Position numbers and translations under genes: made by a program. A stretch of DNA of 64,000 nt from an uncultured Veillonellaceae bacterium (GTDB lineage: Bacteria; Bacillota; Negativicutes; JARBTT01): positions 416,001 through 480,000 of the forward strand of contig CAWDTA010000002.1 in assembly GCA_963805085.1 (NCBI GenBank), read 5' to 3'. Of this stretch, positions 27,653-49,440 are shown piece after piece (position 1 is the stretch's first letter; every line of letters starts with the position of its first letter). The notes beneath the pieces are model-generated. The model saw only the letters and a program-made list of their open reading frames with translations, was not told where the DNA came from and did not search any database.

Positions 27653-27754
27653 TACCTGTACTCCTTAATTTTCTTTCGATGCAAAACTTCTATTTTCTTT
27701 ATAATTTAACATCGCAATATTTAATCCTGCCAAGGCATGTCTATTACCAATATT

Positions 27755-28804: not shown

Positions 28805-28865
28805 AAAAATAACCTTCTCTCTAATTTTCACAAAGAATTACAGCTTGCAAATATACCATTATACA

Positions 28866-28908
28866 GCGGGCTAGTAATAATCAAAATAATTGATTATTAC
28901 TAGCCCGC
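28866..28908. other. 19-bp-stem intra-operon hairpin
   Basis: GCGGGCTAGTAATAATCAA / TTGATTATTACTAGCCCGC; no clear U-tract on the coding strand. Confidence 0.55.
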
Positions 28909-28920
28909 GTCATTTATATT

Positions 28921-29751
28921 TTATTTAATAAGCCCTAATGCTCCACCTGCTAATGCAAAAACAAACAACGCTAAGAGTACATTTACAACACGATACCCAC
29001 GCATAATTGCCTGCCAACTTACGATCGTAATTGCCAGTGGTAATGCTTTTGGTACAATTTTATCCATCATATCCTTGATTGCGATTTCCTTACCGCCTAA
29101 AACCGGCACCCAAGCAAAATCTACTGTGATAAACTTACATACCATAATTCCTAGAACAAACAAACCCATAATAGAAAAGAAAGTTGTTAGTTTTTTGAAC
29201 AATCCACCTTCTAAAATTGTAGTTACTGCCGAAGTACCTAATTGATACCCTTTTTTAATACTAAGTCTTGTAATCGTATAATCATAACCGAGCATTGCAC
29301 ACGCAAATACAAGTGGCCCCATAATGCTACCAGCAGCTGCCCAGCCTAAACAAATTCCGAGAACAACCGGTTTGTATAACGCACCGGAAATTGTATCACC
29401 GATACCAGCGAGCGGCCCCATTAAAGACGATTTCAAATCAATAATTGTAGATTCATCAATATCGCCACCTTTTGCTTTCTGCTCTTCCAGTGCAATAACA
29501 ATTCCATGAATTACCGCACCCCAGCGAGGTTCTGTATTAAAAAACATCATATGACGTTTTAAACCGGCAACCACTGCTTCCTGATTATTAGGATATAATT
29601 TTTTTAAAATCGGCCCCATCATGGATGCGAATCCACCAGCCTGCATTCTTTGATAGTTATAGGATAAATGGCTCATGATCCACCAACGGAAGATTGCAAA
29701 CTCAATATCCATTTTGGATAATCCCACTTCGGTTATTTTATTATCTGCCAT
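28921..29751 (-). CDS. PTS mannose/fructose/sorbose family IID
   Basis: YNYQRMQAGGF, FFNTEP, LMGPLAGIGDT. Confidence 0.92.
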   Translation of the reverse strand: MADNKITEVGLSKMDIEFAIFRWWIMSHLSYNYQRMQAGGFASMMGPILKKLYPNNQEAVVAGLKRHMMFFNTEPRWGAVIHGIVIALEEQKAKGGDIDESTIIDLKSSLMGPLAGIGDTISGALYKPVVLGICLGWAAAGSIMGPLVFACAMLGYDYTITRLSIKKGYQLGTSAVTTILEGGLFKKLTTFFSIMGLFVLGIMVCKFITVDFAWVPVLGGKEIAIKDMMDKIVPKALPLAITIVSWQAIMRGYRVVNVLLALFVFALAGGALGLIK

Positions 29752-30521
29752 TATATTTCATCCTCCTCATCATCCACCGCTGCCGATACTTTTTCTGTTG
29801 CTGGTTGCAAAGAAATATAAACATACCCCATAGCTGCACCTAAGAATGCCGCAAATAATAAATTATTCATTCCTGTATAAGCACTAATGGCAAATCCTAC
29901 ACCAAAAAAAACAAGTAAATCTTTACGCGCCATGTATTTTAATAACATTGCAATACCAACTGCTGGTAAAACTTTACCTACGGTATTGAATCCTGCAACG
30001 CCCCAAGCAGGAATTGCTGCAAGAAGTCCTTCAATGACTGGAGGTCCATAATAAGCTGCTAAAAATGCCGGAATACCTCTTACTAGAACCACAACAAATT
30101 GCGAAGGCACTGCCTGCAAAAACATCAACTTTTTTATATCCCCATTTTCCGCACATTTATCCTGTAGCGACGGAATCGCCGAATTGATCGACATGAATAA
30201 AATCCATGCATAATTGCCAATAACCCCTATAGACACTGCCATTACAACTGCTTGTTCTGTACTAATATTACTTTGGATTGCAACCGCAGTTCCTAGTAGT
30301 CCAGCTGAATACAAATCTGATGGATTTGCCCCGCCCGTACTATTCCAACCTAAGAAAGCCACATTAATTGCTGCCCCAATGATCATTCCTTCGACTGGTT
30401 TTCCATAAATTAACCCTACCCAAAAACCTGCCATAATTGGCTCACGAATCAGCCACCATCCTAATGGATTTGAGGAACTTTGCAGCCAGCCTAATATACC
30501 AATCATAATTGCCTCGATCAT
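29751..30521 (-). CDS. PTS mannose family IIC
   Basis: EPIMAGFWVGLIYG, GGANPSD, LPAVGIAMLL. Confidence 0.9.
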   Translation of the reverse strand: MIEAIMIGILGWLQSSSNPLGWWLIREPIMAGFWVGLIYGKPVEGMIIGAAINVAFLGWNSTGGANPSDLYSAGLLGTAVAIQSNISTEQAVVMAVSIGVIGNYAWILFMSINSAIPSLQDKCAENGDIKKLMFLQAVPSQFVVVLVRGIPAFLAAYYGPPVIEGLLAAIPAWGVAGFNTVGKVLPAVGIAMLLKYMARKDLLVFFGVGFAISAYTGMNNLLFAAFLGAAMGYVYISLQPATEKVSAAVDDEEDEI

Positions 30522-30606
30522 AAGTATCTCCTCCTCAATATAATTGCAAAATCTATGTACAGCTGGTGATTCATCGCGATCAATGAACCACCTGACTTCC
30601 TTAAGA

Positions 30607-31089
30607 TTAAAAAGCTACGCTTATTGCACTATAGTTCATTTTTTTATCCTCTGGGGTTGCTTGAAAGAATATTTTTACATCCTCCGCCATTTTTTTTATT
30701 AAATTATTATCTTCCTCATTTAATGTCATGTTTTGATAAACTGCTTTACGCCCTGGCCCTGCACCTAAACCACCAATTTGTAATTCTTCAATCGGAAATC
30801 CTTTTTCCCAGGTTACATGCGTCGTCAAAATATCTTTAAATAAAATCATCGCGTTACCTTCACCCAATTGGTTTTTATTCCAAGCGGCGATAAAACGCTC
30901 AATACTAACAATACTGCATTTTACCTCCGCGGGCGTCGCCATCCGATATATATTACTCATTACTGGATCTTTTGCTAAATTATCATTCACGATAATAATT
31001 TTTGTTGCTTGCGTATCTTTTAGCCATTTCGCGACTACTTGACCATGAATCAGACGAAAATCTACTCTGATTAAAGAAATTTTAGCCAT
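30607..31089 (-). CDS. PTS mannose family IIB
   Basis: RVDFRLIHGQV with phospho-acceptor His. Confidence 0.92.
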   Translation of the reverse strand: MAKISLIRVDFRLIHGQVVAKWLKDTQATKIIIVNDNLAKDPVMSNIYRMATPAEVKCSIVSIERFIAAWNKNQLGEGNAMILFKDILTTHVTWEKGFPIEELQIGGLGAGPGRKAVYQNMTLNEEDNNLIKKMAEDVKIFFQATPEDKKMNYSAISVAF

Positions 31090-31111
31090 TGTTATGCACC
31101 CTTTCTACCTT

Positions 31112-31543
31112 CTATATTGATAAATCTTCTACCGCACGCAGTTCTTTTAGAATATTTTTACAGCCTGATTGTCCAGCTTGTATTACTGCTTCAGCTAATT
31201 CTTCACCGCACATACTAAACCGTAAAGAGAGTGCTTCAATGAGCATACATAAATTTAATCCAGCAACTGCAATAACCTTATATTGACTCGCTACCGCTGC
31301 TGAAACATTAGATGGTGTCCCTCCAAATAAATCACTCATAATCACTGAACCCTCTGGCATTGTATTTAAAACAGTCTGTACATCGACAATAAAATCGGCT
31401 GGATCCATTCCTGGCATCAGTGACAAAGCCTTAACATTTTCTTGCGCACCGATAATCATCTCAGCACTTTTGATTATCTCTTCGCCAAAACTCCCATGTG
31501 TTATCACAAGAATTCCAGGAACAGCATTCTCTTCTTTTGGCAT
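31112..31543 (-). CDS. PTS mannose family IIA
   Basis: VITHGSF, DLFGGTPSN, GLNLCMLIE. Confidence 0.92.
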   Translation of the reverse strand: MPKEENAVPGILVITHGSFGEEIIKSAEMIIGAQENVKALSLMPGMDPADFIVDVQTVLNTMPEGSVIMSDLFGGTPSNVSAAVASQYKVIAVAGLNLCMLIEALSLRFSMCGEELAEAVIQAGQSGCKNILKELRAVEDLSI

Positions 31544-31571
31544 ACAGTTTTCCTCCCTACGCGCCTCTCAA

Positions 31572-32219
31572 CTATTGACGAGCTTTAACAATCGCATCTA
31601 AAAATTCTTTTGTTGCTTGCGTTACTTTGCCATAATCTCCATCTTTTTTATGTGCTTTCGAAATATAACTGCCAACACCAACAGCAACACATCCAGCCTC
31701 TAGCCATTCACCAACGTTTTCTGGCGTCACGCCACCAAAAGGAACAATTGGTGCAGTTGGCATCGGCGCCCGTAGAGTTTTTACATATTTAGGTCCATAA
31801 AATTCTGCTGGAAATAGTTTGATAATGTCAGCACCTGCAGCCATGGAATCTGAAATTTCCGTAGGCGACATCGCTCCCGATACAGTAATGGCCTGATAAC
31901 GATTTGCCATACGAATCATATCTGCACTAAAACTTGAACTTACCAACATTTCTGCTCCAGCCAAAAGAGCCGCACTAGCATTCTCAGCATCTAAAACCGT
32001 ACCAACCCCAATCACAATCCCTTGACTGCTATATTTACTGGTTAATTTTTTAATGATAGTAAGCACATCTGGAACCGCAAAAGGAAATTCCAAAGCTCTT
32101 GCCCCACCAGCAATCGCCGCTTCAGCAATTTTATACGCATCTTCTGCATCGTCAGACCGAATAATTGCGATCATTCCACATTCATCAATCGCTTTTAAAT
32201 TCTTTAATTTTTTCCACAT
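31572..32219 (-). CDS. KDPG/KHG (Eda-family) aldolase
   Basis: IAIIR, GVGTVLD, KLFPA Schiff-base Lys, PFGGV. Confidence 0.85.
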   Translation of the reverse strand: MWKKLKNLKAIDECGMIAIIRSDDAEDAYKIAEAAIAGGARALEFPFAVPDVLTIIKKLTSKYSSQGIVIGVGTVLDAENASAALLAGAEMLVSSSFSADMIRMANRYQAITVSGAMSPTEISDSMAAGADIIKLFPAEFYGPKYVKTLRAPMPTAPIVPFGGVTPENVGEWLEAGCVAVGVGSYISKAHKKDGDYGKVTQATKEFLDAIVKARQ

Positions 32220-32252
32220 AATAAATTTCTCCTTATAATTTTATATCAGATT

Positions 32253-33209
32253 CTATTTTATTACAGAATATTTTGCTTTTTCTCCCGATAAGACCCTTAC
32301 GATTTCCTCAGCTGCTATCACACCCGCATTGACAATCGCTTCTTTTGTATAAGCACCAGAATGTGCTGTCAATACAATATTGGATAAATCAACCAATTTC
32401 GAATCCACTAGCGGTTCATTTTGGTATACATCTAATGCAGCACCCGCAATCACTTCTGTACTGAGCGCTTCATATAAATCATCTTCTACAACAAGCTCAC
32501 CACGTGCTGTATTAACAATAAATGCTGTCTTTTTCATACTACGCAATCTATCTATGTTTACCATACCAATGGTATCTTTAATCGCTGGTGCATGTAAAGA
32601 TACGAAATCTGATTTTGTAAAAATATCGTCTAGACTAACATAAGTCACACCATATTGATCAATAAAATCTTGACGAGGATAAACATCATATGCCAAAATT
32701 TTCATCCCAAAAGCAAAGGCTCTCTTTGCGACTTCACCGCCGATATTCCCCATTCCCACAATACCGAGGACTTTACCTGCCAATTCAACGCCAGTATGAC
32801 GATACCAGCTTTTTTCTCTAATTTTTCTATCCATTGCCGGAACATTTCTTGCAATCGATAACATGAGACCCATTGCTAAATCTGCGACTGATTTGCTATT
32901 TGCACCTGGAGTGATGGTGACATCTATCTTTTGCTCTTTGGCTGCGACAACATCAATTGTATTGTACCCAACGCCTTGCTTTGCCACAATTTTTAAAGTC
33001 GGTGCTCCAGCCGTTAGAACAGCTGCCGTTACTTTATCACTACCTGCGATCATTCCATCAACACCTTGAATCATATCGATTAATTCAGCTTCTGTTAACG
33101 TTCGATCATAAGGATTTAAAATCAATTCATATCCTTGTTCATCCAAAATCTTCATTGCTTCTGGCGCTCTTGATCGTGCCCTTGAACCAATCAAAACTTT
33201 TTTCTTCAT
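32253..33209 (-). CDS. D-isomer-specific 2-hydroxyacid dehydrogenase
   Basis: GVGYNTID, GMGNIG, NTARG, ALDVY..EP, TAHSG. Confidence 0.88.
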   Translation of the reverse strand: MKKKVLIGSRARSRAPEAMKILDEQGYELILNPYDRTLTEAELIDMIQGVDGMIAGSDKVTAAVLTAGAPTLKIVAKQGVGYNTIDVVAAKEQKIDVTITPGANSKSVADLAMGLMLSIARNVPAMDRKIREKSWYRHTGVELAGKVLGIVGMGNIGGEVAKRAFAFGMKILAYDVYPRQDFIDQYGVTYVSLDDIFTKSDFVSLHAPAIKDTIGMVNIDRLRSMKKTAFIVNTARGELVVEDDLYEALSTEVIAGAALDVYQNEPLVDSKLVDLSNIVLTAHSGAYTKEAIVNAGVIAAEEIVRVLSGEKAKYSVIK

Positions 33210-33279
33210 CGACTCAACCCCTTGCCATAATATTTCGATTTATTTCATTATTCTTAAAATTAATCTTGACTACTATAAA

Positions 33280-33295
33280 TGCAAGAAGCGTGCCA
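33280..33295 (-). promoter_or_regulatory. Sigma54 (-24/-12) promoter of the PTS operon
   Basis: TGGCACGCTTCTTGCA, GG-N10-GC, about 70 bp upstream of the first gene. Confidence 0.88.
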
Positions 33296-33394: not shown

Positions 33395-33456
33395 ATAAAT
33401 AAAGACCTAATTCAGATGACGTTTCAACACCACCTGAATTATAATTATCGGATAAA
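33395..33456 (+). repeat. Degenerate, internally deleted copy of the 130-bp repeat family
   Basis: ATAAATAAAGACCTAATTCAGATG...CACCTGAA...ATCGGATAAA keeps both ends and the first hairpin of the reverse complement of 4647-4779. Confidence 0.5.
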
Positions 33457-33565
33457 AAATAAAGACACTAGAAATTTAAATTCTAATGTCCTCAAATCCA
33501 AGTAAACTATTTTTTTATGATAAAAACACCTTACATAGAAATTTCTTTATAGATCAATGAAACTT

Positions 33566-34318
33566 TTAAACTGACATTCCTGACATGATAAATTTCACAC
33601 CCAGCACAAACACCACAATTGATAGTAAAATGATAATTGCTCGCGGTTTGGTTTTGCTCGCAATTTTTGCCCCAATTTGTGCCCCAAAGATTGCTCCAAT
33701 ACCGACACAAATTCCCGGAAGCCATAATACATGCCCCAAAATAAAATGTGAAATAACTCCAACAAAGCTAGATATCGCAAGTACACAAGTAGACGTTGCC
33801 GTTGCAACATGTGTAGGAAAGCCAAGCGCATAAATCATCATTGGTACGTGGATAATCCCACCCCCAATACCTAAAACGCTAGAAATAAAACCAACGCCGA
33901 CACTACTTATAATTCCTAAAGTACTATTATACTGAAACACTTTTTGATCAAAATGCTGCTGTTTTTCTTTCTTTGAAGATTTAGAGTACATCATGACCGA
34001 CATAAACACTAAAAAAAGACCAAAGGCCAGACTAAAGGTTGCCCCTGTAAAATAGTGTGCGACATAACTCCCCAAAAATGCCCCAGGAATAGTCGCTAAA
34101 CCAAACCGAATTGCTGCATGATAAAACACTTTTTTTTGCTTAATATAAGCCCAAGTTCCAGATATTGCATTGAATAAAACAATAAACAAGGAGGTCCCTA
34201 TTGTTTGTGCGGCTGAATACTCAAATCCCCATAAAAATACCGGGATCAAGATCAATCCGCCCCCGACACCTACCAATGTTCCAAAAGCACCTACCACACT
34301 ACCAAGTAAAAAAAACAT
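33566..34318 (-). CDS. TauE/SafE family (sulfite exporter-like) membrane protein
   Basis: GTLVGVGGGLILIP, GTSL, SSVLGIGGGIIHVP, ATATS; start may be ATT 34336. Confidence 0.88.
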   Translation of the reverse strand: MFFLLGSVVGAFGTLVGVGGGLILIPVFLWGFEYSAAQTIGTSLFIVLFNAISGTWAYIKQKKVFYHAAIRFGLATIPGAFLGSYVAHYFTGATFSLAFGLFLVFMSVMMYSKSSKKEKQQHFDQKVFQYNSTLGIISSVGVGFISSVLGIGGGIIHVPMMIYALGFPTHVATATSTCVLAISSFVGVISHFILGHVLWLPGICVGIGAIFGAQIGAKIASKTKPRAIIILLSIVVFVLGVKFIMSGMSV

Positions 34319-34354
34319 AAATGCTGTTATAATAATAAAAATCTCCTCCGTTTT

Positions 34355-35053
34355 CTATACAAACATGGATACGAACAAAGCTATAACCACAGAAACTAAA
34401 CCTGTTACAACAACAGCAATTCCTGCTAAAGCACCTTCCGTTTCGCCGATTTCAACTGCCTTAGAACTACCTAACGCATGGCTCGATGTCCCAATCGCAA
34501 TGCCTACGGCAATACTTTGATTGATTTTAAAGAACTTTAAAGCAAAAGGAATCAACATCGTCCCTAATATGCCTGTACAAATCACAGAGGCAACAGTAAG
34601 AGCTGGAATTCCTCCTAAAATCGTAGAAATATCGATTGCGATTGCTGCTGTTGTCGTTTTGGGTGCCATCGATAAGGCAACTTGCCTGTCAATCCCCATT
34701 GCCGAGCACAGCATGTAAATGCTATACATACTTGTGATTGAGCCAACAACCGTACCAACAATAATGGGTACGATATTATTTCGAATGGTCTGCCGCTCCT
34801 TATACATTGGCAATGCAAACATAATCGTAGCTGGACATAGTAGAATATTAATCACCACCCCCCCCTTATTGAAGGTGTCTAAAGAAATATCAAATACCTG
34901 CATGCCAAAAACAATCAATACGATTGCAACAAATAATGGATTTAATAGTTGCACATTCGTCTTTTGATAAATATAAATTCCTATTTGATATGCCAAAATA
35001 CAAATACCCAGAATTGCTATGGGTAACATTGGACTGTCACTGATAACTTCCAC
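34355..35053 (-). CDS. lrgB: LrgB/CidB family membrane protein
   Basis: LLNPLFVAI, PATIMFALPMY, SMAPKTTTAAIA, GTSSHALGS. Confidence 0.88.
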   Translation of the reverse strand: MEVISDSPMLPIAILGICILAYQIGIYIYQKTNVQLLNPLFVAIVLIVFGMQVFDISLDTFNKGGVVINILLCPATIMFALPMYKERQTIRNNIVPIIVGTVVGSITSMYSIYMLCSAMGIDRQVALSMAPKTTTAAIAIDISTILGGIPALTVASVICTGILGTMLIPFALKFFKINQSIAVGIAIGTSSHALGSSKAVEIGETEGALAGIAVVVTGLVSVVIALFVSMFV

Positions 35054-35054
35054 G

Positions 35055-35420
35055 TTAATTATTCTTCCTCATTTTATTTTGTAAGTGTAACACTAATTTC
35101 ACAGCAACTCCAGTCGTTGCAAACGTTAAGAGTGTTGAAATCAGCGTCACGATTGAATACTGAAACAAAATATTTTTGATCAAATCATATTTGCCAATAA
35201 TCGATACGCCCGCGGCGATAAAAAAGAATCCCATGTTGTGCATAAAAAAATTCGCGATATCTTCAATATAGCTTATTTTGATAATCCTTAGCATCAAACA
35301 GCTCATTAAAAGGATAATCCCGACCACACTCACTGGAATAGCAATCGGCAAAAGGCGTGAAAGAATATCAGCGCAAGCTACCAACAAAAAGACGATACCG
35401 ATTTGTACTAATATTTTCAT
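35055..35420 (-). CDS. lrgA: CidA/LrgA family membrane protein
   Basis: IPVSVVGIILL, NMGFFFIAAGV; directly upstream of lrgB. Confidence 0.85.
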   Translation of the reverse strand: MKILVQIGIVFLLVACADILSRLLPIAIPVSVVGIILLMSCLMLRIIKISYIEDIANFFMHNMGFFFIAAGVSIIGKYDLIKNILFQYSIVTLISTLLTFATTGVAVKLVLHLQNKMRKNN

Positions 35421-35447
35421 TTATATTCTTCCACTCCTGTTACCTGA

Positions 35448-36347
35448 TTAAAATTTAACTATAGATAAATCATACGATTCAATCATTTGTTCTAGATTTT
35501 TTATTTCTTCTTCGGTTGGTGTCGTGTACTCTTGTACACCAATACCAAGCGCTTCCATCTTATGCTGTCCTAACGTATGATATGGCAATAATTCAATTTG
35601 CTTAATGGTGGTTTGCGCTCTTAAAAATTCGCACATCGATCGAATATTCTTTTCAGTTGCATTGACTTCTCTAATCAAAGGGACACGGATGATGATATTT
35701 TGATGTAGCTTAGAAATCTGCTTAATGTTTTCTAAAATTTTTTGATTACTAACACCCGTAAGCGCCTGATGCATCTCATCATCCATATGCTTGATATCAA
35801 TGAAAATTGCATTTAATGCAACGATAATGTCTTGGTTTTCAGCAAAATCAAAATAAGCGCTTGTTTCTACGGCTGTATCAATTCCCATAGCATGACACTG
35901 TGAAACCAATTGACGTAAATAACTGCCTTGCATAAAGGGCTCACCGCCAGAAAAGGTAACACCACCACCAGATTCTTGATAAAAAATGCAATCTTTACGA
36001 ATCATGTGCATAACATCTTCGACGGTGACAGCTTCACCAATCTGCTTTCTCGCCCCATGCATGCATACCGCCAAACATTTTTGGCAATACACACATTTCG
36101 CATGGTCAAACTGTATTTTCCCCGATGCACTTTGCGTAATTGCGCCATGCTCACATACTGCCAAACAACTCTTACAATTTGTGCATTTTTGCTCATACAC
36201 CATGATTTCTAACTTCTGATACCAAGATTCTGGATTCGCACACCATTTGCACCTGAGCGGACACCCTTTAAAAAACGCGGTACTCCTGATTCCATCACCA
36301 TCATGAATCGACCAGCGTTGCAGTTGAAAAATATTAAAGGTTTTCAT
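35448..36347 (-). CDS. GRE activating enzyme (radical SAM with two-[4Fe-4S] insert)
   Basis: HDGDGIR, GCPLRCKWCANPES, CTNCKSCLAVC, CVYCQKCLAVC, GGGVTFSGGEP, LLPYH; start overlaps the GRE stop. Confidence 0.93.
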   Translation of the reverse strand: MKTFNIFQLQRWSIHDGDGIRSTAFFKGCPLRCKWCANPESWYQKLEIMVYEQKCTNCKSCLAVCEHGAITQSASGKIQFDHAKCVYCQKCLAVCMHGARKQIGEAVTVEDVMHMIRKDCIFYQESGGGVTFSGGEPFMQGSYLRQLVSQCHAMGIDTAVETSAYFDFAENQDIIVALNAIFIDIKHMDDEMHQALTGVSNQKILENIKQISKLHQNIIIRVPLIREVNATEKNIRSMCEFLRAQTTIKQIELLPYHTLGQHKMEALGIGVQEYTTPTEEEIKNLEQMIESYDLSIVKF

Positions 36348-38709
36348 ATGTGGTACGCTCGATGATCGCTTCTTGTGCATCACGCGACAAGTTGACGAAT
36401 TGCGTGCTGTAACCAGCCACCCGTACTAATAAATCTTTATAGTTTTCTGGCTCCGCTTGCGCTTTTCTTAATAGCTCGGTCGAAATTACATTGAACTGTA
36501 CATGGAATGCACCTAAAGCAAAATAGGCTCTGATCATCGAAGCAAGATTTCTCAGATTACGCTCTGATTTTAATAGTTCTGGTGAAAATTTAATATTGAG
36601 TAGTGTTCCGCCACTGTGAATATCATGGTTGATTTTTGCTGCAGAACGCATTGCTGCCGTTGGGCTCGTTAAATCTGTACCAGCATGTGGGGAAACACCT
36701 TCGGTTAGAGGCGACCCAGATTTTCTGCCATCCGGGGTTGCTCCAATCACAGCACCAGCGGGAATATAATTGGAGATTCCCATAAAGGCTGAATTGAATG
36801 GTGAGCCAAAGAAATCCTTATACGCAACAATTTCTTTATGATAAAAATCGGTAATTTCAATTGCAATCATATCTACATAATCATCGTCATTACCATATTT
36901 CGGACAAGTAATTGCATCTTGACGCATTGCTTCGTAGCCAACCCAATCTGCTTTCATTGCTTCGCGAATCTCGGCTAACGTATATTTCTTTTCTTCGAAT
37001 ACCAATTTTTTAATCATCGCTAGCGAATTGGCTACATCTGCTACCCCAATCCCAGTAAGCACTGGACCGAGGTTGTATTTTGCTCCGCCGCGGCTTAAAT
37101 CTTTGCCCTTTTCCATACAACCATCCACTACCATTGACAAATATGGACGTGGCACCATTTCAGCATGAATTTGTTGTGCGGTAACACTACCGATTACCGA
37201 ATGCTTAATCAGGTTTGCTAATTGGTCAAAGAAGGCTGTCTTCACCGCTTGATAACTTGTAAGATCCTCTAATGGGGTTTCTAATCCCATCACCTGACCT
37301 GTGATATTCCCCTTACCTTGATTTAAGGTATATTCAATTGCCGCTGCTAAATTGATGTTTACCGCAGACGTCCATTCGCCAATCTTTCTAAAATGTGGCA
37401 CTACACAACCGCAGTTGCTCCAATCACGGGCATCTTCTACTGAAAGACCTGCTGCCATGAGCATTTCTGATCCTACGCGATCATTATGTACCGCGGGGAA
37501 TCCTGTACCTGCACTGATTAATTTACAAACGGCCATTAAAAATTCTGGTGGACAATCAGGATGAATGCGCACACTGAGGCCTGGTTGATGGGTTTTTACA
37601 TTCTCGCTTGCTTTTAAGCACATATAGGAGATTGCATTCGTTCCGTCACGACCATCACGGCGTCTGCCACCAACGGTTAAATTTTGGAATGAATTGTAAC
37701 CAGCAAAAAACTTCGCTGTATTACTAGAGATTGCCCATACCCATTCTGACAACTTAATCCAAAGCGCTTCAATCAATTCTTGTGCTTTTTCGGCCGTGAT
37801 TTTTCCATTTTGCAAATCTGCTTCATAAAACGGATACATATATTGATCAAAACGTCCCAAATTCAGCGCCAAAGAGTTTTCTGAAAGGATAGAGCCAATT
37901 TGCGTAAACCAAACCGTTTGTATCGCTTCAGCAAAAGTAGTTGGCGGTTTTTCTGGTACGTTTTCACAAATCGCGGCGATCGCTAACAATTCAGCTTTTC
38001 TCGCTGGATTTTGTTCTGTTTCAGCAAGTTCTGCTGCTTTTTTCGCATATCGCCCGGCTAAACAAACGATGCCTTCGCAGACTAAAACTGCACTTTGGTA
38101 GAACTCAATTTTTTCAAGATTCTCTGCCGAGGTCGGCTCTAACTCTGCTAATTTTGCGCTTGCATCTTTCCGTAAGCCACCAAAGCCTTTTTTGAAAATT
38201 ACATCTTGATAATCCGCAGTGACTTCGCCAACGGCACTACGCCATTTGGAGTCATTATCGATAATTCCTGTATCGATTAAAAGTTTCGCTGTTTTTTTGT
38301 CTAAGCGGGAGAGAAAAGTTTCCTCAAGCGATTTCCCCTTCCAGTAAGGGAACACCTCGTTTCTTAAGGCTTCTTTGGCAGCCTCATCAATCACATAAGG
38401 ATCTTGGTTACGGCTTTCAAACGTATCCATCTCTTGCTCAACCCATTGCCACGAATATTCTGGACATACAATCCCATTTCTTCTGAATTCACCAATCGAA
38501 CCAACAATCAATTCTTGATCAAATATCGTAACCGGAATCGTCTGGCAAACTTCGCCAAAAGCTTTCGCTCTTCTGATAATGACCGCTTCACCCTCTGTTT
38601 TTTTATGCGATTCAGTAAAGGTGATTGCTCTTTGTACACTAATGGATGGTTTTGAGTTTACATAAATATCTTTAAATTCGTCAATCCTACTACTCATGAT
38701 GTTGTTCAT
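36334..38709 (-). CDS. Glycyl radical enzyme of unassigned class (Cys loop CGCVVP)
   Basis: Gly loop LLVRVAGYS, HVQFNV, ATPDGR, GRFDQY, FFAGYNSFQNLTVGG; start may be ATG 38697. Confidence 0.92.
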   Translation of the reverse strand: MNNIMSSRIDEFKDIYVNSKPSISVQRAITFTESHKKTEGEAVIIRRAKAFGEVCQTIPVTIFDQELIVGSIGEFRRNGIVCPEYSWQWVEQEMDTFESRNQDPYVIDEAAKEALRNEVFPYWKGKSLEETFLSRLDKKTAKLLIDTGIIDNDSKWRSAVGEVTADYQDVIFKKGFGGLRKDASAKLAELEPTSAENLEKIEFYQSAVLVCEGIVCLAGRYAKKAAELAETEQNPARKAELLAIAAICENVPEKPPTTFAEAIQTVWFTQIGSILSENSLALNLGRFDQYMYPFYEADLQNGKITAEKAQELIEALWIKLSEWVWAISSNTAKFFAGYNSFQNLTVGGRRRDGRDGTNAISYMCLKASENVKTHQPGLSVRIHPDCPPEFLMAVCKLISAGTGFPAVHNDRVGSEMLMAAGLSVEDARDWSNCGCVVPHFRKIGEWTSAVNINLAAAIEYTLNQGKGNITGQVMGLETPLEDLTSYQAVKTAFFDQLANLIKHSVIGSVTAQQIHAEMVPRPYLSMVVDGCMEKGKDLSRGGAKYNLGPVLTGIGVADVANSLAMIKKLVFEEKKYTLAEIREAMKADWVGYEAMRQDAITCPKYGNDDDYVDMIAIEITDFYHKEIVAYKDFFGSPFNSAFMGISNYIPAGAVIGATPDGRKSGSPLTEGVSPHAGTDLTSPTAAMRSAAKINHDIHSGGTLLNIKFSPELLKSERNLRNLASMIRAYFALGAFHVQFNVISTELLRKAQAEPENYKDLLVRVAGYSTQFVNLSRDAQEAIIERTTYENL

Positions 38710-39394
38710 CCTTTCTTTTTTGTTGCTTAGCGTCCAGCAAATAATTATGTAACGTTTTGCTGGCTGATTCCATATGCATTTTCAGTATCTTCTTGGCTCT
38801 CTTTATATCTTTTTGTGTGCACGCTTCCAAAAGATCCCGATGTTCCTTCTGCGACTGTGTTTGGTAGTGCATCTCTTCTAAATAAATCCGCATATAACGT
38901 TCTACATTGTTATGCAGTACTCGAATCATATCTAGTAATTTTGTTTTTCCTGAAGCTTCATAAAGATATTCATGAAACAAACAGTTGAGTTCACTCCAGC
39001 GATTGGAGTCTTCCTCTCTTTCTAATGCTTCTAAAACATGCTCCGCTTTTTGAATCCCTTCTTCAGTAATCGCTGGTATCGCAAATTCCAAAGCGCCAAG
39101 TTCGAGCAACATACGAATTTCAAAAATTTCTTGTGCTTCCTCTGCGGATAACTCGGTTACAATTGCACCTCGATTCGGATAAAACTTCACTAGTCCTTCT
39201 GACTCTAACGTTTTTAAGGCTTCACGCAACGCACTCATACTTACATTGAACTCTTGTGCGAGTACCTCTTGTTTTAACGGCATCCCACCGACAAACGTAC
39301 CTGATAATATCAATTGCCGTAATTGGTTACTGATTTTAATCGGTATCGTCATTCTTCCTAATTTCTCTGTTTGTTTAAAATAATTTGTTTTCAT
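38690..39394 (-). CDS. GntR (FadR/FCD) regulator heading the GRE operon
   Basis: LAQEFNVSMSALREAL..LESEGLV...PNRGAIV; FCD N..FH...EH. Confidence 0.9.
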   Translation of the reverse strand: MKTNYFKQTEKLGRMTIPIKISNQLRQLILSGTFVGGMPLKQEVLAQEFNVSMSALREALKTLESEGLVKFYPNRGAIVTELSAEEAQEIFEIRMLLELGALEFAIPAITEEGIQKAEHVLEALEREEDSNRWSELNCLFHEYLYEASGKTKLLDMIRVLHNNVERYMRIYLEEMHYQTQSQKEHRDLLEACTQKDIKRAKKILKMHMESASKTLHNYLLDAKQQKRKDEQHHE

Positions 39395-39436: not shown

Positions 39437-39501
39437 TTTCGAAAGTATACAGTATTCACTTTCACCTTTGCTTTATTTGACAAATTTCGAAAGTATACAG
39501 T
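39437..39501. promoter_or_regulatory. Two identical 17-bp direct repeats, putative GntR operators
   Basis: TTTCGAAAGTATACAGT at 39437-39453 and 39485-39501. Confidence 0.65.
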
Positions 39502-39718: not shown

Positions 39719-40879
39719 ATGGTCTACGATAAACAAAAAGCATTCAATTTCATCGATCTGAATAAAGCTGAAATGATCAATTTATGGGAACAGTTAGTGA
39801 ATCTAGAATGTGGCGCTCTAAATAAAGTCGGTGTTGATATCGTCGGTAAAAAAATTGAAACTATCTTAAAAGAAGTCGGCTGCAAAACACGTTTTGTCGA
39901 ATTTGAGAAATCAGGCAATATGTTAATTGCCGAATATGGTGATACCGAAAATAAACCTTGTGTTATTTTTACCGGTCACATGGATACCGTTTTTGCCGAT
40001 GGCACTGCCGCTCAGCGCCCCTTTACAATAAAAGAGGATAAAGCCTACGGCCCTGGCGTACTTGATATGAAGGGCGGCATCGTAATTCTGCTCTATGCAT
40101 TAAAAGCACTCAACGAAATCGGCTATAAAACTTTGCCAATCAAAATCGTTCTTCTTGGTGATGAAGAAAATGGCCATCTACTTTCAAATGCCGGTGATTT
40201 TATTGTGAAAGAGTCTAAAGGAGCTTTAGCGGCATTTAATTTTGAAACGGGTTTTATGGACGACGGTATCGTTGTTGCCCGAAAAGGCATGTTCCAATTT
40301 TGCCTTGAAGTATTTGGCGTAGCAGCCCACGTCGGCAATGATCCTGAAAATGGGCGTAGCGCGATCCTCGAAATCGCCCATAAAATTATTGATATCGAGA
40401 AATTAACCGATTTTGAAAAAGGCAATACCTTTAATGTCGGCGTCATTGAAGGCGGCACTGTTGCAAACGCGACTCCTGACTATGCAAAAATCACAGTTGA
40501 CCTAAGATTTCTAGATTCAGCTCACTTGCCAGATGTGATGAAACAAATTGAGAAAATCGTCAATAAAACTTATATTGATGGCACGACAACCAAATTCTCG
40601 AAAAAAGTTGAACTCAATGCGATGAAAAAAACCGATGGCTCGCTTAACTTATTTGAAGTTGTTAAAGATGTTTATGAAGAAGAAAACCTTGGCCTTCCTT
40701 ATCCTAGAACAGTTGGCGGAGCTTCCGATTCGGCTTATACCGTTTTAGCTGGTGTCCCAACAGTTTGTGCCATGGGAGTCAAAGGCGGACGCAATCATAG
40801 CAAAGATGAATTCGCCGTCGTTGAAACCTTATTTGAAAGAGCCAAGTTAACCATCGCAACTGTCCTTAAATTAAAATAA
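39719..40879 (+). CDS. M20 family metallopeptidase (glutamate carboxypeptidase-like)
   Basis: GHMDTVF, GPGVLDMKGG, DEENG, FETG, GGASD, HSKDE. Confidence 0.9.
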   Translation: MVYDKQKAFNFIDLNKAEMINLWEQLVNLECGALNKVGVDIVGKKIETILKEVGCKTRFVEFEKSGNMLIAEYGDTENKPCVIFTGHMDTVFADGTAAQRPFTIKEDKAYGPGVLDMKGGIVILLYALKALNEIGYKTLPIKIVLLGDEENGHLLSNAGDFIVKESKGALAAFNFETGFMDDGIVVARKGMFQFCLEVFGVAAHVGNDPENGRSAILEIAHKIIDIEKLTDFEKGNTFNVGVIEGGTVANATPDYAKITVDLRFLDSAHLPDVMKQIEKIVNKTYIDGTTTKFSKKVELNAMKKTDGSLNLFEVVKDVYEEENLGLPYPRTVGGASDSAYTVLAGVPTVCAMGVKGGRNHSKDEFAVVETLFERAKLTIATVLKLK

Positions 40880-40898: not shown

Positions 40899-41576
40899 GT
40901 GTTTACTATGACAGACGTCGAACACAATTTAACTTGGCGAGGTTGGTTATCCTTCGCATTTATTGCTATCTCGTTTTCTGGTGTTTTAGCAAGTGCTGGT
41001 GTTTGGAGTGCATTTGATTTCCAAACGCTCATCGGTAACTTTGGTAAAATCGGTGATTTAGGTCCCTTCTCTGGCAAAGGTGGCACAGGGGCAAGAGAAG
41101 GATTTTTATTTGGTTTAACGTTGGTTCCAACCGTTATGTTTGCTTTAGGAATGATTCGTGTTGTTGAATCTTTAGGCGCACTCTTGGCTGCTGAAAAACT
41201 AATTCGTCCGATTTTAAAACCTTTAATGGGTCTTCCTGGCGTAACCGGACTTGCCCTTGTCAGTAGTATGACAAGTTCTGATGTTGGCTCAGCCATGACG
41301 AAGCAACTCCACGATAGTGGTAAACTAACAGACGATGAACGCACTATTTTTGTATCTTATCAATATGCAGCTTCTGCAACACTTACCAATACAATCGACT
41401 GTGGTGCCCCATTATTAGGTATCGCTTTATTACCGATTGGCGCAGTTTTGGCAATTGAAATATTTGTAAAAATCTTAGGTGCTAATGTTGTAAGATTTAT
41501 TCTTGCCCGTCAAGCCGCAAAAACCCCCACAGCACAAGAAAGCGAAACAGATATTTCCATAGGAGGTGCAGCATAA
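40899..41576 (+). CDS. yjiH: YjiH-like nucleoside-recognition (Gate) membrane protein
   Basis: FDFQTLIG.FG, G.GGTGAREGFLF, LKPLMGLPG, SSDVG. Confidence 0.8.
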   Translation: MFTMTDVEHNLTWRGWLSFAFIAISFSGVLASAGVWSAFDFQTLIGNFGKIGDLGPFSGKGGTGAREGFLFGLTLVPTVMFALGMIRVVESLGALLAAEKLIRPILKPLMGLPGVTGLALVSSMTSSDVGSAMTKQLHDSGKLTDDERTIFVSYQYAASATLTNTIDCGAPLLGIALLPIGAVLAIEIFVKILGANVVRFILARQAAKTPTAQESETDISIGGAA

Positions 41577-42073
41577 TGTCAACGGAAACTTTAGCAATTA
41601 CCCCAAAAAGAACCTTAATTGAAGAATTTTGTTTTGGTGCTAAAAATGGTTTTTATCTCGGTGTAGAGAGAATTATTCCAGCAATGATTCTCGCTTATGT
41701 CTTAATTATGTGTTTAAAAATAACGGGTCTAATGACAATTGTTGGTACTGTTGTCGGTCCAGTTATGGCTATTTTCGGGCTACCTGGTGAAGCTGTTGTT
41801 TCCCTTGTTGCTGCTTTCTTTGCCAAGGCAGCTGGCGCTTCAACCGCGGCCTCCCTTTATGCCGAAGGCGTAATCAACGCTGCGCAAGTAACCATTCTGT
41901 TTCCTGCAACGATCACGATGGGAACACTCGTGGGTCACTTCGTTCGCGTCGTTGTTGCTTCTGGCGCAAATGCAAGATGGCATCCTTTACTTCTTTTTAT
42001 TCCGCTCTTCGATGCCGTTGTATCCATGCTTTTAGTCCGTGTCATATTAAACCTAATGGGCGTAGCTGCATAA
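41576..42073 (+). CDS. yjiG: YjiG-like membrane protein
   Basis: GAKNGF, IPAMILAYVLI, PVMAIFGLPGEA; coupled to yjiH. Confidence 0.78.
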   Translation: MSTETLAITPKRTLIEEFCFGAKNGFYLGVERIIPAMILAYVLIMCLKITGLMTIVGTVVGPVMAIFGLPGEAVVSLVAAFFAKAAGASTAASLYAEGVINAAQVTILFPATITMGTLVGHFVRVVVASGANARWHPLLLFIPLFDAVVSMLLVRVILNLMGVAA

Positions 42074-42237: not shown

Positions 42238-43527
42238 TTAAACCGCTGTTTTATCTACTTCAATATGCTTAACTTTTCCAAGTAAAAACGCATAGTTTAA
42301 AATACCAATAATCAGGAGTCCCGAAGAAAGAAGCAGTGCCATGTTAAACGAACCAGTCGCTTGCAAAATTGCCCCAGTAACAATCGGACCTACTACCCCA
42401 CCCATATTAGAAACCGAGTTTTGTAATCCAGCAACCACCGAAGTCATATTTTTCGGTGCAACGTCACCAGGAAGTGCCCACACTTGCGATGCTGCCACCG
42501 TTGTTCCCGATTTAGCAATACATAAAAGAATAACTGCCGTAATTGGGGACTCAGCAAAAGCAGCCAGACCAATACAAGATGCCATTAATAAGCCGCCAAC
42601 TAAAAACGCTTTGCGCGTTGCAGTTAAAGACAACCAACCTTTTGAATATACCTTGTCAGATGCCCACCCAGCAGCAACTTCTACAATCATAGAAATTAAC
42701 AGTGGCATCATAGCCGCGAATCCCATTGCGAGCATTCCCATTCCTTTTTCTTTAACGAGATAGGTTGGAAGCCAAGTAATAAAGAAGTAAGAAGTATAGT
42801 TAATCATAAAAAAGCCAATGCACATTGCCCAAATGTTTCTATACTTTAAGAGTTCGTACCATTTCATTGGCTGCTCATTATCAAGACCTTCTTTTTTACT
42901 CTGTCCGTCGCGAATATACTTCAGTTCAGCAGCATTCACACCCTTATGTTCTTCTGGAATATTCCGATAATACATAAACCATACAACAGACCAAACAACA
43001 CCTAAAGCACCAATAATGACAAACGTCATCTTCCAGCCAAACATGGAAATAAGCCAAACAATAAGTGGCATTGCAACTGCTCCGCCAAATTTAGAACCAC
43101 TGTCAAAAAGTCCGCCAACCGTAGCCCGCTCTTTATCCGGGAACCATTTAGACGAAATTCCGGCATTACTTGGATATGCAGCAGCTTCACCAACCCCAAG
43201 TGCTACACGAAAGCCTAAGATTGATTTAAAACCTGTGCCAAGTCCAGTCAACGCTGTAGCCACAGACCACCAAGCTACGGCAAAACCCAAAGTTATTTTC
43301 TGGCCTAGCTTATCAGCAACTATACCTGCTGGAATCTGTAGTAAAGCATAGGACCAGAAAAAGCCCGACATGATAATCCCCATCTCGCTTGGTGTGATAC
43401 TAAAATCTTTGGTCATATAAGGAGCCGAGGCAGCAAGTACAGTACGGTCAATATAATTAATGGCAATTGCTGTCCACATTAACGCAGCAACAACCCAACG
43501 TACATTTGTTTTTTTCTCATTCAACAT
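42238..43527 (-). CDS. MFS transporter, anion:cation symporter (sugar acid) family
   Basis: INYIDR, FFWSYALLQIPAG, GVGEAAAYP, WFPDKERA, TWLPTYL. Confidence 0.9.
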   Translation of the reverse strand: MLNEKKTNVRWVVAALMWTAIAINYIDRTVLAASAPYMTKDFSITPSEMGIIMSGFFWSYALLQIPAGIVADKLGQKITLGFAVAWWSVATALTGLGTGFKSILGFRVALGVGEAAAYPSNAGISSKWFPDKERATVGGLFDSGSKFGGAVAMPLIVWLISMFGWKMTFVIIGALGVVWSVVWFMYYRNIPEEHKGVNAAELKYIRDGQSKKEGLDNEQPMKWYELLKYRNIWAMCIGFFMINYTSYFFITWLPTYLVKEKGMGMLAMGFAAMMPLLISMIVEVAAGWASDKVYSKGWLSLTATRKAFLVGGLLMASCIGLAAFAESPITAVILLCIAKSGTTVAASQVWALPGDVAPKNMTSVVAGLQNSVSNMGGVVGPIVTGAILQATGSFNMALLLSSGLLIIGILNYAFLLGKVKHIEVDKTAV

Positions 43528-43735
43528 GGTAATACCTCCACTTTTTATTATGCATTAAAATAATTGGATGATAGACAAGTGCTTTTGTTGGCGAAATAAT
43601 AATTCCTTTAGTAAAATTTAGAATATTTTCACTTTTCTATTTAAATTCATAAATCAAACAATTCTAACTTTTATCTTGTTGAAATAATCGGATTACTTAG
43701 TGCAACCCGATTATTTCTATTTTTTCATTGTAGCC

Positions 43736-44896
43736 TTATAATAATTTTTTATAAATAGCCCGCATATCTTCTTTGGTAACCACTTTAGGATTGTTATCTA
43801 ATAACCGCGTTACTTTCGCCGCAGCATCAATCAAATCATCAAGAACGTCTTCATTGATTCCTTTTTCTCTTAAATCACATTTTACATTCATATCTTCAAT
43901 CATCGAATATAAATTTTCAATCATTTTTTCTGCAGCTTGTCTCGTCGTGCAATCTGTCAAATCAAGTTCCATTGCCACCGCAATGTCTTTGAATTTATCT
44001 TCACAAACGTCTAAATTAAACTTCATAACATCAGGAAGCAAAATCGCATTGGATAAACCATGTGGAATATGATATTTCCCGCCCAATGGATACGACAAGG
44101 CATGCACAGCCGTTGTACTAGATGTCGCGATAGAAATACCGCCGAAGCAGGCACCCAAAAGCATATCTTCACGTGCTTGTAGGTTTTTACCATCATTATA
44201 CGCTGTACGAATACTGCGAGAAATTAAGTTAATTGCTTTTAGTGCAAAAGTATCACTGAATGGATTTGCTTTTTTCGAAATATAACATTCTATTGCATGG
44301 CATAAAGCATCCATCCCTGTATTGGCAGTAATGTGTTTTGGCAATCCTACTGTCATTTCTGGATCTAATATTACACAATCGCAGACCATTTTTTCGCTGA
44401 CAATCCCTACTTTTAGTTCTTCTTCTGGCACTAAGACAATCGCATTTGGTGTTGCTTCTGAACCAGTTCCTGCCGTCGTCGGAACCATAAGGGTTGGTAC
44501 CCCACGACGTTTAAACTCAGCTTTTCCTTTGACTAGGTCATATAAAGTTACATCATTGGTTAATAATAATGATACTAATTTTGCAGTATCCATGGAGCTA
44601 CCGCCACCAATACCAATGATCATCTGACATTCAAAGTTTTTTGCAGCATTGAAAATAGCATTGACTTGCTCTAATGCTGGTTCTGGGGGTGTATCATTCA
44701 TAATATGAACATTAACGCCAGCATCTTCAAGGATTTTCTTTGGTTTATCAATTAAACCTGTTTGCCAAACGCCTTGATCCGTAATAACAACAACATTTTT
44801 TGCTTCAAAACTTTCTACAACATCTTTTATCTGTGCAATAGAGCCCGCACCGGCTACAATTTTTCCTATGTTTAATAACGAATATAGTTTACTCAT
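43736..44896 (-). CDS. Iron-containing alcohol dehydrogenase
   Basis: GGGSSMDTAK, PTTAGTGSEAT, DALCHAIE, VHALSYPLGG..HIPHG. Confidence 0.9.
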   Translation of the reverse strand: MSKLYSLLNIGKIVAGAGSIAQIKDVVESFEAKNVVVITDQGVWQTGLIDKPKKILEDAGVNVHIMNDTPPEPALEQVNAIFNAAKNFECQMIIGIGGGSSMDTAKLVSLLLTNDVTLYDLVKGKAEFKRRGVPTLMVPTTAGTGSEATPNAIVLVPEEELKVGIVSEKMVCDCVILDPEMTVGLPKHITANTGMDALCHAIECYISKKANPFSDTFALKAINLISRSIRTAYNDGKNLQAREDMLLGACFGGISIATSSTTAVHALSYPLGGKYHIPHGLSNAILLPDVMKFNLDVCEDKFKDIAVAMELDLTDCTTRQAAEKMIENLYSMIEDMNVKCDLREKGINEDVLDDLIDAAAKVTRLLDNNPKVVTKEDMRAIYKKLL

Positions 44897-45003
44897 GCTA
44901 CTCTCTTCTTTCTACCATTATATTCACGATATATGTTTAAACAATCATTTTACTTAATTAGAACTATCATTTTTAACTTTCATGAAAATGTACAATGCAT
45001 TTA

Positions 45004-45981: not shown

Positions 45982-46120
45982 TTAAAGCGCTCCTTATTTA
46001 AAAATCGAGAAAACCGAGAAATTCGAGCTATGAACATAGGGTGCATGTGTTTCCCTATGAATTCACCCTATGTTTTTGCTCTTCTATACAAAACTAAGGG
46101 GTAGTATTGCTCGCTATGAT

Positions 46121-46996: not shown

Positions 46997-47030
46997 AAAT
47001 AATCATCCCTTCAATTTATCATAATTTATT

Positions 47031-48041: not shown

Positions 48042-48055
48042 CTCTTTTTCCTCCT

Positions 48056-49381: not shown

Positions 49382-49423
49382 CGATGTGTCACCTTCTCTC
49401 CTTGGTCATTTGCCTAATTATAA

Positions 49424-49440
49424 TGCAAGCAGCATGCCAA
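49424..49440 (-). promoter_or_regulatory. Sigma54 promoter of the acid-sugar operon
   Basis: TTGGCATGCTGCTTGCA, GG-N10-GC. Confidence 0.88.

Follow-up and report, generated by a model that had tools for sequence, protein, structure and literature searches.

Characterized glycyl radical enzymes (GREs) that act as eliminases or isomerases all keep a catalytic loop of the form Cys-x-Glu (C-x-E), according to the accessible text of a 2026 review (PMC13450708). In that text, CutC is the only C–N eliminase among GREs, and two loop cysteines are recorded, outside the ribonucleotide reductases (RNRs), only for pyruvate formate-lyase (PFL) and TdcE, where both are essential. The same text describes HypD and HpyG as starting by hydrogen abstraction at the carbon beside nitrogen, leading to an imine, with the C-x-E Glu hydrogen-bonded to the leaving hydroxyl; together with the accessible part of PMC8473560, it gives the C–S lyases IslA/IseG and HpsG a C-x-E loop plus an Arg/Gln/Arg sulfonate triad (Arg and Gln on beta-1, Arg on beta-8). 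No enzyme with a loop reading C-G-C-V-V-P is listed in the accessible portion of the review. We describe here such a GRE, encoded by the second of six genes (gntR–GRE–activase–lrgA–lrgB–tauE) in a 64,000-nucleotide stretch of DNA from an uncultured Veillonellaceae bacterium (contig CAWDTA010000002.1, positions 416,001–480,000; hereafter the window). It belongs to a conserved family without the loop glutamate, for which chemistry on a small amino compound is our tentative reading.

The features of the operon and of its GRE were as follows.

38690–39394, minus strand: GntR/FCD-family transcription regulator, first gene of the operon (234 aa; Pfam FCD 5.1e-27, GntR 7e-14)
36334–38709, minus strand: glycyl radical enzyme P0001, CGCVVP family (791 aa; Pfam PFL-like and Gly_radical)
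38224–38250, minus strand: beta-1 segment S154-K-W-R-S-A-V-G-E162 (alignment with CutC, IslA and HypD)
37396–37413, minus strand: Cys loop C433-G-C435-V-V437-P (translation; DNA 37413–37396 reads TGC GGT TGT GTA GTG CCA)
36406–36423, minus strand: glycyl radical motif R-V-A-G766-Y-S (VRVAGYST; translation; fits RVxG[FWY])
35448–36383, minus strand: GRE-activating radical SAM enzyme (311 aa; Pfam Radical_SAM/Fer4_12; TIGR02494)
35055–35420, minus strand: LrgA-family membrane protein, apparent lineage-specific addition (121 aa; Pfam LrgA 1.6e-22)
34355–35053, minus strand: LrgB-family membrane protein, apparent lineage-specific addition (232 aa; Pfam LrgB 1.8e-68)
33566–34318, minus strand: TauE/SafE (TSUP) family anion permease, last gene of the operon, apparent lineage-specific addition (250 aa; Pfam TauE 7.9e-54)
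33408–33494, minus strand: two terminator-like hairpins 3' of tauE, probable operon end (hairpin scan)

The GRE matched the PFL-like Pfam model PF02901 over its whole length (E 1.7e-222; profile positions 1–647 of 647) and Gly_radical (1.9e-33), its frame was open throughout, and its AlphaFold model (pLDDT 93.4) superposed on CutC with TM 0.98–0.99. The translation around the loop reads ...SNCGCVVPHFRK..., with GTG as the V437 codon, and the segments WVWAISSNTAKFFAGY, GEWTS and GISN are CutC-like, while AVGE replaces the CutC signature GGGD and GCVVP replaces GCVEP. The first-pass annotation of this DNA had reported the loop and its GTG codon, the intact RVAGYS loop and the CutC-like segments without their two signatures, and DNA and translation bore out each of these. 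The neighbouring activase scored 342.8 bits on TIGR02494 (NCBIfam cut-off 174) and carries CPLRCKWC, a CxxxCxxC motif, and two CxxCxxCxxxC ferredoxin motifs. With an intact Gly motif, a catalytic Cys, a full barrel and a dedicated adjacent activase, the protein is, as far as sequence can tell, a member of the GRE superfamily.

To judge conservation, we compared the query with the 120 best-ranking homologues out of 6065 at E ≤ 1e-100 (76–95% identity). All 121 sequences carry CGCVVP, an RVxG[FWY]-type Gly motif and SKWRxxxGE in beta-1. NCGCVVP was found in 26/26 full-length GREs of at least 55% identity among the genome contigs (genome_contigs set), and CGCVVP in 7/7 loci of related genomes and in all 20 metagenome family loci whose fragment extends to the loop; the catalytic Cys435 was an invariant column of a 40-sequence alignment. 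The second valine was encoded, among 50 distinct loci, by GTA (18), GTG (16), GTT (15) and GTC (1). Because all four Val codons are in use, Val437 is held by selection, and this usage together with the homologue conservation rules out the private mutation or sequencing error that had been raised as a way in which the loop might mislead. Family members come from Negativicutes, Synergistaceae and Clostridia, with Sporomusa, Pelosinus, Anaerosinus and Acidaminobacter hydrogenoformans among the cultured carriers, and the record names of their contigs label them as soil, groundwater, sediment and gut.

The loss of the glutamate could also mean a dead enzyme, that is, a decayed, non-catalytic paralogue of CutC: the corresponding CutC Glu491 is catalytically essential in mutagenesis (accessible text of PMC13450708), and the structure of an E491A CutC exists (PDB 5KDP). 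We consider this extremely improbable. The family retains 55–95% identity over three bacterial groups, its Gly motif and catalytic Cys are invariant, all four synonymous Val codons are used in a frame without internal stops, and the activase is adjacent in 49/56 loci, the others being mostly truncated. The 56 loci are the window and the family loci from genome_contigs, related genomes and metagenomes with identical copies removed, scored by tblastn against labelled reference proteins; near-duplicates may persist among them, related Sporomusaceae contribute many, and the counts given for them here and below are of loci, not of independent events. On sequence grounds, the CGCVVP family looks like a real, active-looking GRE with an altered catalytic apparatus.

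A one-genome-per-species scan showed the family to be discrete, with at least 55% identity inside it and at most 41% to anything else, and, when 1.84 billion 50%-identity representatives were searched, the best full-length outsider was a CutC-type protein (38%). CutC also gave the best matches in the PDB (E 5e-226 to about 1e-187), followed by glycerol dehydratase and HpyG (8ID1); for CutC entries 5A0U and 5FAU, E was 5e-202 to 5e-226 at about 39–41% identity. PDB 9RCO, considered as a possible new relative, is a propanediol dehydratase. The only NCBIfam model that the GRE passed was the generic PFL2/glycerol-dehydratase subfamily model. Its scores fell under every equivalog cut-off (CutC TIGR04394 743.4 bits against 1050, HpsG 654 against 1000, HypD 594 against 1100, PFL TIGR01255 156.3 against 994), which rules out membership of CutC or of another equivalog. 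In a FastTree of 97 GREs, a quick tree with SH-like supports and no bootstraps, the family was monophyletic (support 100) and sister to CutC (76), with the clade of HpyG orthologues joining next (83); the sister relationship to CutC is weakly indicated and is a lead, not a result. By tree, equivalog scores and identity gap alike, the GRE does not group within a characterized GRE.

When the query is counted with the nearest 150 clusters of 50%-identity representatives, C-x-E occurs in 109 and a different residue in about 36, with Val at this position only in the CGCVVP family. The non-Glu residues found in the about 36 of the 150 clusters were Ser, Asp, Gln, His, Thr, Ala, Asn, Gly and Tyr, and many GRE clades outside the C-x-E rule have no assigned reaction (clusters P0122–P0271). 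The CGCVVP family is one of these many unassigned clades; it makes a good target but is not in itself an unexpected kind of enzyme. The ESM Atlas returned generic GRE clusters only. A literature search of main texts, with supplements (and possible sequence similarity network tables in them) and subscription papers outside its reach, returned no paper on a CGCVVP-loop GRE and none linking a GRE to LrgB, RidA or diaminopropionate. Together, these results very probably identify a conserved, apparently uncharacterized GRE subfamily without the C-x-E glutamate, in line with the unassigned class put forward in the first-pass annotation. The family breaks the rule that C-x-E is used by all eliminases and isomerases, and bends the one that confines a second loop cysteine to PFL and TdcE; once assigned, its reaction would add to GRE chemistry.

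We then mapped the active site with the 12 residues that surround choline in Desulfovibrio alaskensis CutC, taken from the accessible part of PMC12838924 and transferred through a gap-free PDB alignment. Five are retained (Cys489, Phe389, Phe395, Thr502 and Ile700), as are the Gly loop and the type of activase. Unlike CutC, the CGCVVP GRE has replacements at the other seven: Asp216 by Glu162, Glu491 by Val437, Tyr208 by Ser154, Tyr506 by Asn451, Thr334 by Leu280, Met487 by Cys433 and Leu698 by Met643. C435 thus aligns with the catalytic Cys489, V437 with Glu491, and the second loop cysteine, C433, with Met487, which is itself listed among the active-site residues of CutC (PMC12838924, accessible part). 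A site on beta-1, described in the accessible part of PMC8473560 as a common substrate-contacting position, is Glu162 here, the trimethylammonium-binding Asp216 in CutC, Gln193 in IslA and His160 in HypD; in our alignment, it was His in most dehydratase-like relatives and Glu in HpyG orthologues (motif GWGE). HpyG and HpzG, which are N-methyl-cis-4-hydroxy-L/D-proline dehydratases (PDB 8ID1 and 8IOF), and HypD form the next-closest characterized clade; unlike the CGCVVP GRE, with its C-x-V and second Cys, they keep C-x-E (GCVET). At thirty-seven positions, all of 27 family sequences share a residue that is rare in 55 other GREs; these include Trp156, Arg157, Cys433, Val437, His439, Arg441, Arg521 and AFMG at 641–644.

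Some family members from Sporomusa are named ‘Choline trimethylamine-lyase’ in public databases (P0058, P0099 and P0105), a likely over-annotation for proteins without the catalytic Glu and Asp216. An assigned reaction would stop such mislabelling, which bears on the counting of trimethylamine-producing genes in metagenomes; CutC, the closest relative of the family, is disease-linked.

The CutC-like pocket might be read as that of a C–N lyase which frees trimethylamine or a methylamine, not from choline but from a carboxylated quaternary or N-methyl amine of the betaine type. The nearest solved structures are those of CutC, which is also the sister clade, if with weak support; Phe389, Phe395 and Thr502 are retained, the Asp216 site is still acidic as Glu162, and HpyG, in the next clade, binds an N-methyl amine too and shares the Glu on beta-1. 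Among the hosts, many are of the Sporomusa type, and Sporomusa are acetogens that use methyl groups. We nevertheless regard a betaine-type substrate as unlikely: amine expulsion has no obvious radical route without a hydroxyl or amino group on the adjacent carbon, Tyr208 and Tyr506 of the trimethylammonium pocket are gone, methyltransferase and corrinoid genes are absent from the 25 commonest neighbour families, and the M20 hydrolase, RidA and PFOR partners described below are left unexplained.

The operon was examined next for what it says of the substrate. The gntR and GRE genes overlap by 20 nt, and the GRE and activase genes by up to 50 nt, or by less if the activase begins at a later Met, its start being ambiguous (GTG at 36383 or, for example, Met at 36347). 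The remaining gaps are 27 nt (activase–lrgA, with GGAG ahead of the lrgA ATG), 1 nt (lrgA–lrgB) and 36 nt (lrgB–tauE), which agrees with the tight one-strand packing noted in the first-pass annotation (overlaps or gaps under 40 bp). No terminator-like hairpin lies between activase and lrgA; the sole ones on the minus strand follow tauE. Because the junctions are tight and these hairpins come only after tauE, the six genes look like one GntR-headed transcription unit. A 2-hydroxyacid dehydrogenase, an Eda aldolase and a mannose-type PTS lie downstream; the hairpins and an exact sigma-54 promoter match rule them out as part of the same unit. The Pfam scan found no microcompartment or aldehyde dehydrogenase gene in the operon, and an Fe-alcohol dehydrogenase (Fe-ADH; 43736–44896) is part of another unit. 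The operon had been described as free of such genes and of alcohol dehydrogenases, from which a product that needs no aldehyde handling was inferred, and the absence was borne out: no cut-type microcompartment or aldehyde-handling genes are linked to the GRE, a further difference from CutC.

LrgA, LrgB and TauE were secure as Pfam families (79.7 bits against a gathering cut-off of 28, 230.6 against 25 and 183.3 against 32.6, respectively), with every NCBIfam equivalog for the three below cut-off. Their linkage to the GRE proved local. The lrgAB and tauE genes were found in 3/56 loci, or 3/37 of those with at least 3.5 kb of downstream sequence, being absent from the other 34, and blastp gave no match to them in the 80 genome_contigs loci. 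The three loci are the window, relative L093 (GRE 86% identical) and metagenome contig L100 (95%), and they are syntenic over more than 15 kb, from the PTS operon through the Fe-ADH gene. LrgB paralogues occur elsewhere in the window’s genome and in relatives; among 31 genomes, the GRE-linked copy was confined to the window’s genome and G004. This rules out LrgAB and TauE as conserved partners of the GRE, an outcome that the first-pass annotation had named as one that would refute its reading; the linkage is that of a single, closely related lineage. LrgAB and TauE thus appear to be additions in the window’s lineage that say little on the GRE substrate, because their linkage is confined to that lineage, and the use of them as a guide to the substrate has lost its support; there, pyruvate or an anionic co-product may be their cargo. 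A related genome of 5.2 Mb (G006:C1:157918–166328) has a gene for an LrgB homologue (35% identical) at about 3 kb from two other GREs in tandem that are 36–37% identical to the query, and proximity of LrgAB to GREs may recur with other GRE types.

These data bear on the substrates first suggested for the operon: a sulfonated hydroxy-carboxylate such as sulfolactate, cleaved at C–S with TauE exporting the sulfite and LrgAB moving the pyruvate, or a small hydroxy acid acted on by a dehydratase or lyase. The apparent co-transcription of tauE and lrgAB with the GRE, with no terminator before the end of tauE, and the same arrangement in two relatives suit such a reaction, and GRE C–S lyases are known in IslA/IseG and HpsG, which share the fold (TM about 0.94–0.95) and free an anion from a small charged substrate, sulfite being a fitting cargo for a TauE-type exporter. 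The Arg and His residues specific to the family could provide a binding site for a sulfonate or carboxylate. Still, the known C–S lyases and dehydratases work through a substrate hydroxyl contacted or deprotonated by the C-x-E Glu (PMC13450708, accessible text), for which the GRE has Val. Loss of the Glu argues against hydroxyl-reacting substrates, namely sulfolactate, hydroxy acids and choline; the first two, as proposed in the first-pass annotation, would need a hydroxyl base that this GRE no longer has. The triad is also different: across the beta-1 positions compared, the sulfonate-binding Gln site of IslA (PMC8473560, accessible part) is Glu162, the residue four upstream is Ser158 and Arg157 lies one further. 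With an HpsG score well under its cut-off, additions confined to one lineage, and recurrent partners that are amidohydrolases and not sulfonate enzymes, we consider this chemistry quite unlikely, more so than a betaine-type lyase.

The partners that recur point elsewhere. Across the 56 loci, the neighbours were as follows.

Activase: 49/56 loci
GntR homologue directly upstream of the GRE: 34/56 loci
M20 hydrolase, the commonest non-regulatory partner: 23/56 loci
HTH-cupin regulator: 14/56 loci
Gate-domain pair: 14–15/56 loci
Amidohydro_3 protein (D-aminoacylase-like): 7/56 loci
PFOR: 7/56 loci
DUF5058 protein with a 224-aa membrane partner: 6–7/56 loci
RidA: 6/56 loci (RidA subfamily model, 180 bits against 106)
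MCP: 5/56 loci
Formimidoylglutamase (HutG): 4/56 loci (TIGR01227, 269 bits against 229)
NSAR/OSBS-type racemase: 4/56 loci (TIGR01928, 346 bits against 200)
Asparaginase II: 3/56 loci
Adenine-deaminase-like protein with a permease: 3/56 loci
LrgA, LrgB and TauE: 3/56 loci each
D-serine ammonia-lyase: 2/56 loci
M42 peptidases: 2/56 loci

In anaerobic Negativicutes, the core of regulator, GRE and activase recurs with a divergent operon encoding an M20 hydrolase and YjiH-YjiG-like proteins, and the GRE–activase pair with a GntR or HTH-cupin regulator recurs also in Synergistaceae and Clostridia. The window has the divergent arrangement.

39719–40879, plus strand: M20 metallohydrolase, carboxypeptidase-G2-like, divergent from the GRE operon (Pfam; CPG2 1.5e-37; PRK06133 246 bits, below its cut-off of 349)
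40899–41576 and 41576–42073, plus strand: Gate-domain membrane protein pair, presumed transporter (second protein YjiG-like: NF007811 156.6 bits against 111)
39438–39453 and 39486–39501, no strand assigned: two exact 16-nt copies of TTCGAAAGTATACAGT, candidate GntR operator in the divergent promoter region

Two matches to TTCGAAAGTATACAGT were found where 0.07 were expected, and TGTATACA-based palindromes (GTATAC-type) lay upstream of gntR in 8 of the 14 other loci scanned. This fits one GntR-controlled regulon that would span the GRE operon and the M20/Gate operon.

From the active site and these partners, we propose a Glu-independent radical lyase that converts a small anionic amino compound to an imine and on to pyruvate, with a probability of roughly 0.4 as an explanation of the data and 0.35–0.4 for the route from amino compound through imine to pyruvate. 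The substrate would most simply be an alpha-amino acid that the M20 or another amidohydrolase partner has freed from a precursor of the N-acyl, ureido or peptide kind. Hydrogen abstraction by the thiyl radical from the amino-bearing carbon would give an alpha-amino radical, for which a Glu base is unnecessary; initiation beside nitrogen has precedents in HypD and HpyG. With Glu162 holding or protonating it, the beta substituent would then depart, and return of a hydrogen, possibly through the second Cys, would give 2-iminopropanoate or 2-aminoacrylate. RidA and PFOR, linked in Sporomusa-type loci, could turn the imine product into pyruvate and then acetyl-CoA. Amine binding by the closest characterized relatives and the retained acid (Glu) at the beta-1 site make amino-compound chemistry the best lead, and the recurrent amide- and peptide-cleaving hydrolases, small-solute membrane proteins, RidA and PFOR would fit this four-step scheme. 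If true, it would give anaerobes a one-step entry of amino acids to central metabolism that is free of pyridoxal phosphate (PLP).

More doubtful is the specific form of this proposal, a new GRE class of Glu-independent two-Cys lyases taking an alpha-amino acid (2,3-diaminopropionate, cysteate or an acidic one, for example), with expulsion of its beta substituent or a fragment, through 2-iminopropanoate to pyruvate. The candidate substrates, which the data do not rank, are 2,3-diaminopropionate, cysteate, Ser/Thr isomers and an acidic amino acid cleaved at C–C, and any single one is unlikely at best. Cysteate, which the first-pass annotation had also suggested, stays a candidate through the RidA and PFOR partners, the family-specific Arg and His and Glu162, whereas the support that it drew from LrgAB and TauE has fallen away.

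A known pathway offers a functional analogy. In the reductive uric acid pathway, as given in the accessible text of PMC12507026, an M20 hydrolase and an Amidohydro_3 protein free an amino acid that yields pyruvate and ammonia. YgeX, a PLP-dependent 2,3-diaminopropionate ammonia-lyase, and YgeY, an M20 protein, compare with the GRE in function only: M20, Amidohydro_3, RidA and PFOR are GRE partners, but the CGCVVP GRE is of an enzyme class unrelated to YgeX. No match to YgeX or SsnA over cut-off was found in the window’s genome (83% complete), and we saw no homologue of XdhD or SsnA next to the GRE. We do not retain a link to the pathway itself, given the lack of SsnA and YgeX matches and of a complementary YgeX pattern in 31 related genomes.

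Several points weigh against the amino-compound scheme. No substrate can be read from the sequence, and a second Cys on the loop is just as compatible with PFL-like chemistry. If residues of the beta-1 strand simply alternate between inward and outward, Arg157 may face away from the pocket. PFOR and RidA come mostly from closely related Sporomusa-type loci and amount to few independent observations, and the D-serine ammonia-lyase of two loci could explain both without the GRE. Outside Negativicutes, the neighbourhoods are heterogeneous, with activase and HTH-cupin regulator alone recurring (85 ORFs, 11 loci). PLP enzymes already carry out most of the candidate beta-eliminations, which leaves the need for a radical enzyme unexplained, and a PLP diaminopropionate ammonia-lyase scored over cut-off in 3/9 GRE-bearing and 12/22 GRE-lacking related genomes; because of these counts, we regard its distribution as not complementary to that of the GRE.

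The second cysteine may return hydrogen to a shifted radical, as in the scheme above, or it may signal a PFL-like C–C lyase, in which the radical would pass from C435 on to C433, and the latter would attack or quench a fragment. From a substrate with a carboxylate group, namely a 2-oxo acid or acidic amino acid, such an enzyme could make formate or acetate, together with a C3 unit or an acyl-enzyme. Like PFL and TdcE, the family has two Cys on the loop, both invariant here, with C433 at the Met487 position. Partners that would yield Glu or Asp recur (HutG in 4 loci, CPG2-like M20 in 23, asparaginase II in 3), and pta-ackA lie directly upstream in two metagenome loci. Against this, a Gly separates the two cysteines that are adjacent in PFL, the family sits amid the eliminases at a distance from PFL (E 3.6e-34, compared with about 1e-200 for CutC) with the PFL equivalog score far below its cut-off, and a formate-lyase that uses pyruvate would make the linked PFOR redundant. 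We judge both the radical relay and the products drawn from it to be unlikely, on a par with the betaine-type lyase.

In the two metagenome loci (L110 and L117, 6630–8872), the pta- and ackA-like ORFs precede the family GRE without an intervening regulator; these neighbours, like a carbonic anhydrase and a fucose isomerase, were named by eye from their N-termini only. HutG directly follows the family activase in three Acidaminobacter-type loci (L022, with the copy at 3474–4520, L111 and L112) and matches within 8 kb of the GRE in a fourth (L018), which hints at a tie to histidine/glutamate catabolism in this lineage.

Other GREs were seen in the window and in the family’s wider surroundings. 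A second GRE locus occupies 55811–60858 of the window, with an activase (55811–56725, minus strand), a DeoR-type regulator (56951–57718), an 801-aa GRE (57742–60147) that is 35% identical to the first and passes the generic PFL2 subfamily model only, and a fructose-6-phosphate aldolase (60163–60858; NF009299, 323 bits against 214). These genes recall the arrangement that PMC13450708 (accessible text) describes for PflD/YbiW ‘anhydroglycolysis’. A third GRE is encoded elsewhere in the window’s genome. Two Synergistales/Synergistaceae metagenome-assembled contigs (L037:5556–10373 and L062:5513–10373) carry tandem GRE pairs, each flanked by activases; the downstream GRE of L037 is a close HpyG orthologue (8ID1, 1203 bits), and the upstream GREs of both lack the Gly before the catalytic Cys (TNCVET), unlike the other GREs compared.

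On either side of the GRE and M20/Gate operons lie two further units. Directly downstream of tauE, the operon at 24824–33295 starts with an exact sigma-54 match (TGGCAC-N5-TTGCA, 33295–33280) and encodes a D-2-hydroxyacid dehydrogenase, a KDPG/KHG aldolase (Eda), mannose-type PTS IIA, IIB, IIC and IID, Ldh_2 and a LevR-type activator. The minus-strand cluster at 42238–51439 encodes an MFS protein (galactonate-transporter-like), the Fe-ADH, a D-2-hydroxyacid dehydrogenase, DHDPS-family and PdxA-family proteins, a four-carbon acid sugar kinase (SBD_N/NBD_C) and a PrpR-type sigma-54 activator. With a near-consensus sigma-54 site at 49439–49424, it looks like a catabolic unit for acid sugars of the threonate/erythronate type.

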